Positions 12,226 through 51,394 of a DNA stretch of 64,000 nt are shown one piece after another. Where the stretch lies: the NCBI GenBank assembly GCA_964016885.1, contig OZ024741.1, positions 37,634,001-37,698,000 on the forward strand. Reading direction: 5' to 3'. Source of the DNA: Eledone cirrhosa. Taxonomy: Eukaryota. Numbering within the stretch: the first letter of the stretch is position 1; every line of letters starts with the position of its first letter. The position numbers and the translations under genes are program-made. Under the pieces are notes generated by a model. It had not been told where the DNA came from and searched no databases. It saw only the letters and a program-made list of their open reading frames with translations.

Positions 12226-12641
12226 TTCTACCTGGAGTTGCGACCGATAGATAGTATTAGCAATTGGAAAGACCAACGGAAACATTGTTCCCTCGGCCCG
12301 ATTTGACGAAAGTTGATCGTTCCTTATATATATATATATATATATATGTATATATATGTATATATATATATATGTATATATATATATATGTATATATATA
12401 TATATGTGTATATATATATAGCAATAATAATAAATTTGAAGACTAAAATCCAGGGAACGTTTCCCCGAACCTAAGTATCGTCTTCCTGTCTTCCTTTGGT
12501 TGCAACGTTTTTTGAAATATTTACTTCTGCGTTCACAGATTGACTTTTTTAGTGTCAGAAGATCTCGTTAAGAGTGAAAGCAGTGATTCTTTGCTTAAAC
12601 TTTAATCTGTTAATTTAATAAATGTATATATATATATATAT

Positions 12642-12728
12642 ATAGGAAAAGGTTCAGGACCCTGACGGCAGAGCTCAAGCCGTTTCGACAGCTATTTCTG
12701 GAGTTCGGGGTCCTGAACCTTTTCCTAT
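12642..12728 (-). other. 21-bp perfect inverted repeat enclosing a degenerate hammerhead-like motif
   Basis: 12642-12662 pairs with 12708-12728; the minus-strand interior has GAAAC-GGC..GCC-GUC, but CUGANGA reads CCGAACU. Confidence 0.55.
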
Positions 12729-12812
12729 TACCCACTCTACTATCCAAAGTATCGAGGATTCTGGTGCATTATGGGCTACCTGGTTCCTACCACACTGCCT
12801 TCATTATATATA

Positions 12813-13497
12813 TGTATAAAGTTCTAGTTTGTAGAAAGGAATATAGCGCACAGGTGCCGTCAAGGAAATTGCCATGCTCAGTGTGTAGAAAAGGAGCAGG
12901 CAGAAATTACATTTTATGTCCCAAATGCAAATTATGGGTACATAAAAGATGTAGTGGGATCACAGGTAAACTATCTCAGAACGTAGACTTTATATATGGC
13001 CAATGCTCAGGTGCAATAAGTAACAAGTGCCCACAGGATTTAGATCTTTGGCGCTACGCAGCAATACAGAAGACCTGCCTTGCCTATGTACAAAGCGAAA
13101 CCTACAGTCAGTAGACACCTCTTAACCAAATATACACCCTAATCCACTACCCCTACCCTATCCTCCCACTCCCACCAACACCACCCTCTCTCTGTAAAGT
13201 TGGTACCACAACATCCAGTCCAAATAAATGAGATTGAGATCGTGTAGGTCTCACGACAAAAAAACACACAGTCCACGCTGTAATGTGGCCATGTAGGTAA
13301 CACGGTAAAAAGTTCCCAGTTCCACACTGTAAATGTGGTTGGTGTTAGGAAGGGCATCCAGCCGTAGAAAACCTGCCAGATAGTCCTATATGAGCGAGAC
13401 ATGGTCACCCGACCAACCTTGCCTCAAGTTGGCACAACTCCCGTCTAACCCATGCTAGCGTTGGAAGATGGACGTTAAACGATGATGATGATGATGA
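12813..13497 (+). mobile_element. Internally deleted RTE (subfamily 2): PHD-like region joined to the 3' end
   Basis: KVLVCRK..PCSVCRKG..CPKCKLWVHKRCSG, then DLWRYA and the 3' UTR with (GAT)n. Confidence 0.85.
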
Positions 13498-15169
13498 TAT
13501 ATATACACACACACACATATATATATTTATATATATATATATATATATATATATATATATATATACACACACATATATATATACATACATATATATATAC
13601 ATATATACATATATACATATATATCTATATGTATATATATATATATGCACAAATGTAAGAAAACGGGAACTTTCCCTTCCCTTCTCACAGTGTTGCTATT
13701 ATCACTAAGATCCTTTCTCCCCACTAATCTATTCATTATTGAGTTATGATTTGTAAATAAATCTTCCTAACATTACAACGTTGCTGCCACTGTTAGCACA
13801 ATTTTGCTCTGATGTAACATATAATCCTATTGTACTGAAATACAATACAGTTATCTCATGTGTTATTTATTTAGTTTTTATTTTCCTATCTATCTTATGT
13901 CCATATTTATATTCAACATATAGAAATCTGTTCTTTGATCAGTCCTGGTTTAATAACAATTTAATTGTTTGTTTTATGGATTATAAAAATAAGCAAGATA
14001 TTTGTTTCAAAAGAATTGTAATGATTGATATGAAAGCTCACTACTCTGGTTATATAATAAAAAGAAACCTGAAATATAGATTAGATTCTGAATTTCAGTT
14101 TAAAATCAATGATGAAAAAGGAAAGCTAAAAATATCCAATTTGTAATGGAATGATGAAAAATGTGTTTACAATTACTGTAGGGGTGGTCACCCACTAGAA
14201 CAATCCCCATGAGTTGAACTGACTCTTTCAACACAGCTCTCTCTCTCTCTCTCTCTCTCTCTCTCTATATATATATATATATATATATATATATATATAT
14301 ATATATTTATTATTACTATATATATATATATATATATATATATATATATATTTATTATATATATATATTTATTATTACTATATATATATCTTGATACCAT
14401 CTGGAGTAATGCATTCAGTATTCTGTCTGCCAGGACTATGAAGCAAACAACACTGAAGGTTTGGATTTACTTCATGTAAAATGTAGCCATTTTTAAATAG
14501 TATTACTTAGATAATGCTCTACTTGTACAAAATATCTGTTTAAAAATATAAATACATATTTTCTGTTCACTCTAAGTTTATGTATCACTAATGTAAAATT
14601 CAATACATTTGGGTGACAAAAATAAATTGAATTAATTTGTTAAAGGTTGCTATTTTTAGAGTCAGTATAAGAAGGGAAATATTTTGCAATGGAACCTTAT
14701 ACCTACAAAATACAAAATCAAAATCGTATGTGAAAATAAATATATAACAACAAACGTTTTAAAGCCATTTTCTCTGCTAAAACGAGTTAACCATGTGGGC
14801 TCCATAACAGGCTTATTCATACTCATCATGGCAATGTTTTATGATAGGATGTTCTTCTTGGTGCTAACCCTTTTAGTGACCTCATGATATACAAGGATAT
14901 AGTATAACTATTCTAAACTGAACACACACAGTAATGTATGTGAACATAGTAAGGTGTGTGAAAATAGGTATATGTAGGGTTATAAAAGTATTTTAGACAA
15001 CCTGTAGGTATAAGTGCCACATTATCACTCATAGATGCATTCTTATATCTAGCCCACAGACATGTTGTTTCTTCCTTCTGCCTCTACTACAATGGTCTCT
15101 TCTCCTTGTAGTTGGCTGGTGTCATGCTACATCTGGTCATGCACTCCAGACACATTAGTAGTCTGTCCA

Positions 15170-15325
15170 GCCACCAGTCCCAACATAAACCACCAGTACT
15201 TTATTTATTGACTCTAAAAGGATGAAAAATAAACTTCAGCTAGATTTTAACTCAAAGTGTAGAAAGCCAGAACAAAATACTACAAAACATCTACTCCAAT
15301 ACTCTAATGACTGTCAATTCACCAC
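15170..15325 (-). mobile_element. Degenerate SINE, family B
   Basis: CCAGTACTTTATTTATTGAC..AAAGGATGAAA.. is the reverse complement of the family B core. Confidence 0.55.
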
Positions 15326-15361
15326 CTACAAAGTTAAATCCCTTCTTCTGTACAGAATTAG

Positions 15362-15612
15362 TTAACCCTTTATAATGAAATAAACTGTCTATGATTTTCA
15401 ATTAATTTGAAAATAATCAAATTAATCAAATATTTTGAGAGATTTAATCAAATAACTAACTCTTGTGTTAGTAAGCTGATATTTAGAAAATTACTTAAAC
15501 ATTTAAAATTATGATGGAAGGGTTTAATATAAGTAAAAGCATTTTAAAATGGTCAATTTTGTATCATAAAATGCAGGACAATTTCCGCTGGTTTAATATC
15601 AAAAAGGTTAAT
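15362..15612 (+). mobile_element. TTAA/CCCTTT MITE
   Basis: TTAACCCTTT...TATCAAAAAGGTTAA termini; interior similar to 3972-4177. Confidence 0.7.
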
Positions 15613-49477: not shown

Positions 49478-50268
49478 ATCATCATCATCATCACCGTTTT
49501 ACGTCTGTTCTTCCACGCTAGCATGGGTTAGACGGGTTGTCCTGTTGTGGGCAGTGTCTGGTCGGCTGACCATGCCTTGCTCATACAGGAACTGATCTGG
49601 CTTGATTTCTACTGCTGGATGCCCTTCCTAACACCAACCTCATTTACAGTGAGTGCTGGGTGCTTTTTCGTGGCGCCTACACGTCCACTTTACAGTGTGG
49701 TCTGGGTGCTTTTTTGCCGTGGCACCTCCGCGACCACCTTGCGGTGGGGGCATATTGTTTATATGCTTCAGCTTGTACCCATGGGAGGTCGGGTACTCTG
49801 TATTACTGCGTGACGCCAGAAGTCACGGTCGTGTGTCATTGTCTTTGAGAGGTGTAATTGGGTAAGGTCAGCTTTTATCACCTCATCCCAGGTCATCTTG
49901 GGTCTCCCCACTCCGCGGTTTCCATCAACTTCTAGTGCTCTGCACCTTTTTATGCAGCTGTCATCCTTCATACGCATCACATGTCCATACCAGTGCAACC
50001 GCCTCTCCTGCACACAGCATTTGATTCCTCTTATGCTCAGTCTCTCTCTCAATTCATTTATGCTTTGTCGTTCACGTATATTACTGTTACACATCCATCG
50101 GAGCATGCAGGCTTCGTCTCTCTCTAATCTACGTAAGTCTTCCACCTTCAGCGCCCAGGTCTCACTACCATGCAACATCGCTGTTCGGATACACGCATCA
50201 TACAGTCTGCCTTTCATTCTGAGGGAGAAGCCTTTTGCAGCTAGCAGTGGTAGTAGTTCCCTAAACTT
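49478..50268 (-). mobile_element. 5'-truncated RTE with an open C-terminal frame and full 3' UTR
   Basis: ORF 49768..50346 ([31 protein letters not shown]); (GAT)n tail. Confidence 0.95.
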
Positions 50269-50390
50269 ATCATATATATGTATATATATATATATCATAG
50301 ATTGAGTTATAAACTCAAAACAGTCTTTTACAATTAAGTAGCTCAAAGAAGGAAATCTTTCCGAGCCGTGTAATATAATTGGATATATGG

Positions 50391-50504
50391 GAGGGATGAA
50401 CCCCGATATAAGTATACATGTTTTAAATTAGTATTTATTCAACCTAGCTAACTTGGTCATTTGCAATTGGAATACATGTATACTTATATCTATGTTCATC
50501 CCTC
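50391..50504. other. ~31-bp inverted repeat with a 52-nt spacer
   Basis: GAGGGATGAAC.CCCGATATAAGTATACATGT pairs with ACATGTATACTTATATC.TAT.GTTCATCCCTC. Confidence 0.75.
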
Positions 50505-50532
50505 TTATATATATATATATATATACACACAC

Positions 50533-50680
50533 AGTGAATTGGCAGAGTTGTCAGAGCGTTGGATAGAATGCTTTATGGTATTTCAGTTCTCTGCTCACTT
50601 AGTTCAAATCCCAAGGTCAATTTTGCCTTTCATCCTTTCGAGGTCAATAAAAAAGTACCAGTCTAGTACTTAGTCGATTC
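50533..50680 (+). mobile_element. SINE, family B
   Basis: GTGAATTGGCAGAG..AGTTCAAATCCC..GGTCAATTTTGCCTTTCATCCTTTCGAGGTC. Confidence 0.75.
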
Positions 50681-50923
50681 TTCTTCTCTCTGGAAGAAAT
50701 CTGCTGTACTCAGGCCTGGAGAAGGAATGGGCTCTACCAGGCTTAAAATGCTCAAGAAACGCTGTATGTCAATATGGCACCCTTACAACTCTATCAGGAT
50801 TTACGGGACAAATGAATAAAAAGAATATACATATATATGCATGATGTTGGCGGATGTGAGAGAAGGTACTCAATACTGAAGTAGAGTCTAATAATATTCT
50901 TTATTATAACAAAGTGATTAGTC

Positions 50924-50970
50924 TTATTACTCTGGAGTTTCACCTGTGTACTCACAGGATCACCAGATAA
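50924..50970 (-). ncRNA. Type I hammerhead ribozyme motif (CUGGUGA variant)
   Basis: UUAU-CUGGUGA-U-CCUGUG(AGUA)CACAGG-U-GAAA-CUC(CA)GAG-UA-AUAA. Confidence 0.6.
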
Positions 50971-51394
50971 TATATAATTCATATGTATATGTAATGAATG
51001 AAGTCATTTATTCTAAAGAAAAACTTTAGAACAATTTTAGGAGTTTCTAATATTTATATGACAGACAGGTAAAACAATTCATTACAGTCATTATATAAGA
51101 GATTGTTGTGATTTTATCAGAATAAATCATCATCATCATCACAGTTTATTGTCCATTTTCTATGCTAGCATGGGTGAAGTGAGTTGTCCCGTTGTGAGTC
51201 AAGTCAGATGACTATGACTTGCTGATCCTTCCCAACAATTTACTTCAATTTGATTTGAAATTTAAAAAAAAAGTGAAAATATATTTTTTTTCATGGGACA
51301 ATACAAGGATGAAAAATATTTCTGTGGGGTTTACATTGATTAAAGGGAAGGGGTCATCAACAAAGGGAAAACACTCATTATAATAAATAGTAAT

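Follow-up and report, generated by a model that had tools for sequence, protein, structure and literature searches.

Fold-back islands in TA repeats of Eledone cirrhosa as very probable truncated ends of hammerhead-bearing Penelope-like elements

We examined short islands lying between TA repeats, several of them with hammerhead ribozyme motifs, in a 64,000-nucleotide stretch of the Eledone cirrhosa genome (contig OZ024741.1, positions 37,634,001 to 37,698,000; "the window", numbered from its first letter). The host assembly measures 3.0 Gb; TA repeats abound in the window, as do pieces of retrotransposons without long terminal repeats (non-LTR). The islands are almost certainly ends of Penelope-like elements (PLEs). 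As a whole, we consider it very probable that they are very short, 5'-truncated PLE ends in (TA)n whose mirror-image form arose at insertion, when both cut target strands primed synthesis; in the two-strand priming step itself our confidence is moderate. The islands add new families to a clade that has been described before, and their layout is known as well. A preliminary description had listed five of them (islands 1 to 5, at 12530-12610, 12642-12728, 47180-47280, 49252-49355 and 50391-50504) as a diverse population of non-autonomous retroelements, each a long inverted repeat (IR) enclosing a hammerhead or its relic. The diversity is confirmed by family searches and by a 1.0-Mb genome sample, in which many unrelated, hammerhead-bearing Penelope-type terminal repeats are very numerous. 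The supposed architecture is a geometric by-product of overlapping outward arms with a variable centre.

Arms, ends and the predicted ribozyme cut

In a two-armed insertion, one element end is present as two 5'-truncated pieces that face outward. In each family from A to F there are two kinds of 3' end, termed short and tailed; the tailed end lies 54-89 nt beyond the short end, with tails of 89 nt in A, 79 nt in B, 54 nt in C, 67 nt in D, 73 nt in E and 60 nt in F. When 30 loci of family B are compared, the outer ends are constant and the centre is variable, and families C and E behave likewise. The IR is the overlap of the two arms; it is the inverted 5' copy already known from PLE insertions and no ribozyme stem. 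The reading of the IR as stem I of the hammerhead was ruled out for islands 2, 3 and 5, where it is an arm overlap with a variable centre.

The two ends are combined in a strikingly regular way. Copies that were not selected by the query include 42 divergent pairs, 33 classable and nine unclassable, and 30 of the 33 unite a short with a tailed end (two are short with short and one is tailed with tailed; about 49% expected, p = 4e-7). In family F, all eight classed pairs are short with tailed, and one pair is unclassed. These and all other arm and family counts are BLAST segments, not curated copies.

Measured from the short end, the predicted hammerhead cut is 20-38 nt upstream in families A-D, 181 nt upstream in E and 163 nt upstream in F. 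Because the cut of A-D is so near the short end, their hammerheads come to lie in the spacer between the arms; island 5 has none because the family E ribozyme, about 180 nt upstream of the short end, was not copied. The arms seldom start at the cut: only six of 281 unselected 5' ends, and none of 122 in family E, fall within 3 nt of it, which rules out that copies begin there. In A and B, most arms continue across the predicted cut, and the 5' ends of family B cluster 31-50 nt upstream of it, a pattern to which divergence of loop II from the reference may contribute. Copy ends bear no trace of cleavage, and self-cleavage by these hammerheads is a prediction from their sequence.

The islands in the window

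We scanned the window for IRs (gapless, score of at least 12, spacer 25-90), leaving out low-complexity arms and the satellite at 52.7-59.5 kb. IRs of 21 bp (12642-12662/12708-12728), 17 bp (47186-47202/47256-47272) and 39 bp (50383-50421/50474-50512) were recovered, so that three of the five islands have the repeat ascribed to them (12642-12728, 47186-47272 and 50383-50512). The scan found no IR at 12530-12610 or at 49252-49355, and the pairing at 49252-49355 is hammerhead stem I alone plus a weak extension. Full or partial hammerheads had likewise been ascribed to the islands, and four of the five contain one: island 1 has a complete motif with a CAGAAGA core, island 2 the 3' half, island 3 a relic and island 4 the one intact canonical motif. 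Island 5 has none.

Island 1 begins to the right of a (TA)n target (12325-12420) with an inverted arm of family A (12421-12452, minus strand) that comprises the distal tail only, with its tailed end toward the TA run (reference positions 231-263, 91%). The direct arm (12450-12623, plus strand), a pseudo-long terminal repeat (pLTR) of a putative Hydra-type PLE, runs up to the short end and contains a type I hammerhead (12549-12603, plus strand) with the core CAGAAGA, in which U4 is replaced by A (U4A), at 12556-12562 and GAAA at 12576-12579. Its predicted cut falls after 12596, and stem I has one mismatch. The inverted arm is the last 33 nt of the tail and does not overlap the other arm; island 1 lacks an IR because the inverted piece at 12421-12452 misses the other arm.

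A (TA)n run (12624-12643) is common to islands 1 and 2. Island 2 opens with an inverted, short-ended arm of family B (12642-12702, minus strand), which holds the 3' half of the hammerhead, with GAAA at 12686-12683, stem III and GUC; the 5' core was not copied. The direct arm (12705-12806, plus strand) ends in a 78-nt tail (12729-12806), followed by TA. In island 3, an inverted, short-ended arm of family C adjoining TA (47180-47208, minus strand) is followed by a direct tailed arm (47209-47332, plus strand) with a hammerhead relic, whose 5' core is truncated, whose GAAA is mutated and whose minimal stem III lies at 47233-47240. A second family C copy, a single tailed arm (50846-50970, minus strand), has a mutated hammerhead core, CUGGUGA, at 50966-50960.

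Island 4 is a single tailed arm of family D between TA runs (49178-49404, minus strand), without a fold-back, and is the pLTR of a putative Hydra-type PLE. It holds an intact canonical type I hammerhead (49276-49335, minus strand) with the core CUGACGA at 49328-49322 and GAAA at 49295-49292, a 3-bp stem III with a 1-nt loop and a predicted cut after 49283. Island 5 consists of a tailed family E arm (50300-50424, minus strand; unit positions 376-495) and a short-ended arm (50421-50512, plus strand; unit positions 325-417) followed by TA, both without a hammerhead.

The best example within the same span was absent from the preliminary list. At 28290-28869, a tailed arm of family F (28290-28605, minus strand), with an intact minimal hammerhead whose core starts at 28547, faces a short-ended arm (28613-28869, plus strand) with an intact minimal hammerhead, core 28671-28677, and then TA. 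The arms are identical over 257 nt, one of them has a 60-nt tail, and both hammerheads point outward. Family F is the pLTR of a PLE of another clade.

Coding partners and clade placement

The terminal repeats of A, B and D are linked, at the level of motifs, to open frames of PLE-type reverse transcriptase (RT) and GIY-YIG endonuclease. In L151 and L307 (L numbers are our handles for loci), an RT-endonuclease frame is followed by family A at a distance of 0.8-0.9 kb; A also lies beside frame ends in L040, L043, L048 and L059, and upstream of the frame start in L045 and L057. In L308, the sole full B locus, an inverted B arm without a tail, the frame and a B end with a tail follow in this order. 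Family D stands ahead of the frame start in L152, L153, L309 and L070 and inverted at the 5' end in L305, L310 and L312. It also lies 1.3-3.3 kb downstream of the frame in four of ten longer stretches (L304, L305, L307 and L310), which were chosen partly by coordinate matches. Only two of 30 frame loci have D within 900 nt downstream, because the 3' untranslated region (UTR) is long and filled with microsatellites. As seen in L215-L243, this D-linked 3' UTR consists mostly of TG/TA microsatellites, which attract further PLE insertions. Full-size copies with the frame between the arms were found for B (L308), D (L310) and A (L151); counting both arms and the expanded microsatellites, L308 measures 3.3 kb and L310 3.7 kb. 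Family F follows the GIY-YIG frame of another PLE type (L155, L160, L172 and L179), which may be Nematis-like. The repeat also stands 5' of the body, giving a pLTR by partial tandem, in A (L045, L057), D (L152, L153, L309, L070) and E (many of L274-L303); no such tandem was seen for B or C in the loci compared.

These associations bear on a reading of the islands as miniature inverted-repeat transposable elements (MITEs), that is, MITE-like DNA transposons with terminal inverted repeats at TA. The short length, the inverted repeats and the TA flanks would fit it. However, the copies have no constant centre, their two ends are unlike each other, RT frames are flanked by these ends too, and single arms are frequent (all eight D insertions in the first 600 kb). 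We regard a MITE-like origin as extremely improbable, and the RT-linked full-size copies L151, L308 and L310 refute it.

Motifs within the frames point to the Hydra clade, which is characterized by a CxCX5C linker, RWK and DKT motifs, CxxC/CxH in place of CCHH, a pLTR hammerhead and insertion into (TA)n (PMC8557442; here and below, published work is cited for the parts of each paper that our comparison covered). Our elements have in common with this clade an RT followed by a GIY-YIG-type endonuclease, the linker, the pLTR hammerhead and (TA)n (PMC8557442). The CxCX5C linker occurs in the frames linked to A, B and D. The endonucleases of A and D lack CCHH and have both CxxC and CxH beside the conserved E and N; the B frame has CxxC and E and then breaks before CxH. 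N-terminal parts were read for D only, and RWK and DKT motifs occur in the D-linked frame (L152). None of five frame pieces scored above the Pfam cut-off, and a 146-amino-acid linker-endonuclease query returned 53,475 first-look candidates in the genome. Judged from these motifs, A, B and D appear to be families of Hydra-clade type. Another putative Hydra-type element, L313:5108-7948, has two long frame pieces with RWK and DKT; its linker is enlarged by inserts that are rich in asparagine and partly repeated, similar to the N-rich ones of rotifer Penelope elements (PMC3846280).

The search for autonomous partners suggested in the preliminary description thus gave RT-endonuclease frames for A, B and D and none for C and E. 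PLE frames were found in one of 60 family C loci and four of 60 family E loci, versus six of 60 larger random stretches. The upstream body of family C is reached in few copies only, and this family probably represents the pLTR of yet another Hydra-type element. The label "non-autonomous" therefore fails for A, B and D, which are truncated ends of coding PLEs, and fits only family E, shown to be a non-coding unit.

Published members of this group are close to what we observe. Hydra clade elements are mostly shorter than 3 kb, and Hydra-1_Obim of Octopus bimaculoides, of 2507 bp, lies in (TA)n (Craig et al. 2021, PMC8557442 and supplement). The full-size copies here measure 3.3-3.7 kb with both arms, and their 3' UTRs are rich in microsatellites. 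By eye, the short stem III of family D resembles that of Hydra-1_oBim (PMC8557442). The hammerhead sequences of A, B and D differ from that of Hydra-1_oBim, so they are other families. In the literature searched, PMC8557442 alone combines "octopus", "hammerhead ribozyme" and "Penelope".

TA adjacency and abundance

We sampled the genome systematically at fixed steps with 100 stretches of 10 kb (1.0 Mb), a design in which small contigs are under-represented. All nine defined ends of families A-E in the window adjoin (TA)4 or longer; one of the arms of family C, 47180-47208, was read from the sequence, as it is too short for the BLAST count of window ends. Within the sample, TA adjacency was seen for 41 of 50 defined 3' ends, nine of 16 other 3' ends and seven of 66 5' ends, against 642 of 20,000 random positions (3.2%). 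The association with TA microsatellites noted at the outset is thus firmly upheld. Two features of family D stand apart: adjacent fold-backs occur in only four of 72 insertions, far fewer than in B or E, and the tailed end often meets (CA)n instead of (TA)n (for example in L069, L075, L077, L310 and L312).

First-look genome searches, with 40 candidates scored per search, gave 2518 candidates for A, 1525 for B, 1370 for C, 2400 for D and 3111 for E. The 1.0-Mb sample contains 25 arms of A, 27 of B, one of C, 12 of D, one of E and 21 of F. With a type I hammerhead descriptor, controlled by 50 shuffles of the window and 10 local shuffles of the sample, the intact motif at 49276-49335 was the sole match in the window (shuffle mean 0.04). 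In the sample, we counted 32 CUGANGA motifs from about ten families, with 0 in each of the 10 local shuffles, in agreement with the expectation that motif frequency would exceed shuffles. CAGANGA, the form of family A, occurred six times (shuffles 0-2) and UUGANAA nine times (shuffles 0-2); five of these nine are a tandem-repeat artefact in L178 and were left out of the larger estimate. Extrapolation from 1.0 Mb gives about 96,000 canonical motifs in the genome (95% interval 66,000-135,000).

We also considered whether the fold-backs could be due to chance or to chimeric assembly. Sequencing is known to produce palindromic chimeras, and no public contig covers all of 12421-12830. Nevertheless, the motif counts exceed shuffles, the arms show divergence between them and terminate at sites fixed within each family, and public contigs carry the same inverted tail joined elsewhere: other family A copies fuse the same inverted tail piece to different points of the body. 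These contigs come from public runs X1 and X2, which are one sample and possibly the source of the assembly itself. We give an artefactual or chance origin practically no credence. Pieces of families A and B are also present in public contigs of a second organism (run X5).

Hammerhead cores

The motif at 49276-49335 satisfies the type I core, C3 U4 G5 A6 N7 G8 A9, G12 A13 A14 A15.1 and U16.1 H17, with three stems. A 3-bp stem III with a 1-nt loop is a form thought to be active as a dimer (PMC4209133). Families C and D have the canonical core with a minimal stem III; among 35 anchored copies of D, 30 read CUGANGA. Non-canonical cores are seen in A (U4A), B (U3-A8) and E (mostly U4A). In family A, all 47 distinct full-length copies have A at position 4, as do 35 of 40 copies of family E, and the other core positions are kept in both.

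The U3-A8 core of family B was found in 3743 of 4082 exact pattern matches, and the reversed-pattern control gave 0. Among the first 100 family B matches listed, nine have a C3.A8 mismatch and none has C3-G8. These C3.A8 copies, also present in L205 and L340, form an apparent subfamily, and the mismatch would break the 3-8 pair. Further U3-A8 (UUGAUAA) hammerhead families with a long stem II occur at L107:1694, L119 (minus strand) and L173, and these families account for four copies in the 1.0-Mb sample.

The U3-A8 core has been published for Schistosoma PLEs (PMC4209133) and as a natural covariation (PMC3088659). U4C reduces activity, with viroid infectivity still possible (PMC3088659). We did not find a U4A core in the passages compared, nor the term itself in the running text (figures such as Fig. 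5 of PMC3088659 apart) of the open-access hammerhead papers retrieved; among the matches listed for the supplement of PMC8557442, variant core words gave chance matches only.

As in published PLE hammerheads, the fold is type I, stem III is short or palindromic, there are many families per genome, most copies are solo and truncated, and opposite-strand pairs lie 100-700 bp apart. Family-fixed U4A was not seen there in the text compared; family B further differs in its long stem II loop and in its minority of C3.A8 mismatched copies.

Against Rfam, the intact motif of family D obtained no hit to a hammerhead family at E <= 10. The best 150 of 445 Rfam matches in the window are microRNA look-alikes below gathering scores, and the best of these coincide with the centre of the 28290-28869 island. 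The expectation of a large, under-annotated class therefore holds in that Rfam passes over an intact motif, and fails in that the kind of element is already known. For annotation, this means that about 10^5 motifs of hammerhead shape, overlooked by Rfam and resembling microRNA hairpins, are remnants of transposons.

Family E and the retrozyme alternative

Family E is a 495-nt non-coding unit, in which the longest ATG frame is 46-53 amino acids in three units. The hammerhead pattern is present in 26 of 30 loci. Copies form seamless, partial head-to-tail tandems with an inverted arm and a tail; two consecutive hammerhead-bearing units were found in one of the 30 loci (L299), the others being partial tandems or monomers. 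A Hydra-type protein probably mobilises family E in trans.

Such a unit brings to mind non-autonomous retrozymes, in which hammerhead-cleaved circular RNA monomers are copied back into the genome. Metazoan retrozymes have type I hammerheads and have been proposed to use PLE proteins (PMC7229834; bioRxiv 10.64898/2026.07.22.740005). Family E, and only this family, resembles metazoan non-LTR retrozymes in being non-coding, in its type I hammerhead and head-to-tail junctions, and in the likely use of PLE proteins. It is unlike them in its dispersed partial tandems, its PLE-type inverted arm and tail, its ends away from the cut site and its length of 495 nt, as against the roughly 170-400 nt reported (PMC7229834); that only one of 30 loci has two consecutive hammerhead units also speaks against this origin. 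Moreover, A, B, D and F are joined to coding frames. We therefore consider a retrozyme origin of the islands improbable, and the suggestion that they derive from self-cleaved monomers was not sustained by their 5' ends, so few of which lie near the cut.

Origin of the inverted arm

The arrangement of arms and ends suggests how an insertion may proceed. The PLE protein would cut both strands of (TA)n, and each target 3' end would prime reverse transcription on uncleaved element RNA, one strand starting from the outer RT site and the other from the inner site. Both complementary DNAs (cDNAs) would stop early and be joined through their 5' ends, frequently across a few bases that they share, and their overlap would be seen as the IR. 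The hammerhead would be carried along where it is close to the short end, as in A-D, and lost where it is further away, as in E.

Biochemical work provides a partial counterpart. In 2024, a Poseidon PLE (PAc) was reported to cut and extend both strands of AT-rich DNA in vitro, with RT starting from two internal sites, which delimit the tail, and with unprocessed RNA as the main substrate (PMC11167929). Insertion by this system does not need ribozyme cleavage, matching the read-through copies here. However, PAc belongs to another clade, its start site is strand-independent in vitro, and inverted genomic arms are unaddressed in the parts of that paper compared (PMC11167929).

The main rival to two-strand priming accepts the same elements and supposes that the first cDNA, or an antisense RNA, primes itself or folds back to give the inverted arm, as has been proposed for rotifer Penelope. 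Palindromes at head-to-head junctions have been read as self-priming on an antisense template (PMC3846280), some family E junctions are perfect palindromes, and the two arms at 28290-28869 are identical. On the other hand, the arms of island 1 have no common sequence, so neither copies the other. The arm that reaches further upstream may be either the short or the tailed one: among 49 family B pairs, the start of the tailed arm is downstream of that of the short arm in 37 and upstream in 10, and for family C the corresponding numbers are eight and 10 of 20. Fold-back alone also leaves the second fixed end at TA unexplained. On balance, we judge self-priming unlikely and favour priming from both strands.

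A hairpin near the ends may be related to the choice of start site. The pattern RCTC...GAGY stands 4-6 nt past the short end in four of five references (A, B, C and E; shuffle rate 0.4-1.4%). The D reference copy carries a substitution and does not match, and most other D copies show the hairpin. It recurs past the tailed end in one of two read-through copies of A and four of five shown of E, and D has a near match there; no copies of B or C read through the tailed end. In minimum-energy folds, the stem is clear for A and E only. By inspection, we did not see the hairpin in the family F tail.

Putting these observations together, we tentatively advance a more specific proposal, which we find plausible but would not back over its denial. 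In each two-armed insertion, the two cut strands would be directed to two distinct RT start sites of one and the same uncleaved RNA, sites which in Hydra-type elements would be marked by twin hairpins. In addition, two unrelated high-copy lineages would have spread with a U4A core, which may be either a new active variant or a PLE hammerhead kept for its fold and not for cutting.

Several points weigh against our interpretation of the islands. The published in vitro work showed no strand-dependent RT start site, and strict start-site pairing within one event is unreported in the parts of that study compared (PMC11167929). Nine of the 42 divergent pairs are unclassable. Family B junctions are mixed, as 26 of 55 overlap by 1-7 nt, seven are blunt and 22 have a gap. 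The hairpin is unmatched in the D reference and unseen in the tail of F, although F pairs its ends alike. Families C and E have no coding partner above the random level. Family D was found downstream of frames in few loci, partly chosen ones among them, and nested TA insertion could explain single cases. Finally, the clade placement rests on motifs and on a published alignment judged by eye.

Relation to the published layout

Endonuclease-containing (EN+) PLEs have a layout of partial tandem, inverted 5'-truncated copy and optional tail (PMC8557442; PMC3846280). The insertions described here share the inverted 5'-truncated arm, the one-sided tail and the pLTR formed by partial tandem (PMC8557442). 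They depart from the published layout in their tails, 54-89 nt here versus 30-40; the pairing of short with tailed ends is counted here, and truncation leaves two arms only. The layout and the clade, with an Octopus member, have been published (PMC8557442), and the possibility raised at the start that the islands are real without being novel largely applies. Less familiar are the near-obligate pairing of ends, the long tails, the read-through of the cut and the U4A core, fixed in A and dominant in E. These features bear on how PLEs build inverted ends and on what the PLE ribozyme does; short-with-tailed pairing, cut-site read-through and fixed U4A cores are testable predictions for the existing Poseidon in vitro system.

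Other features of the window

Non-LTR retrotransposon fragments with (CAT)n ends and 46-48-bp repeats lie at 8449-11105, 46800-47160 and 49480-50270, and an endonuclease and RT frame is present at 8823-10655. Judged from their motifs, these fragments appear to be RTE-like. Very long, strand-asymmetric TA/TG microsatellites, with a GC skew of up to 0.95 and broken by small insertions, occupy 19665-36331 and 38141-39810. The satellite excluded from the IR scan is a tandem array at 52729-59426, with 118 copies of a 57-bp unit (96% matches) that itself contains an internal inverted repeat.

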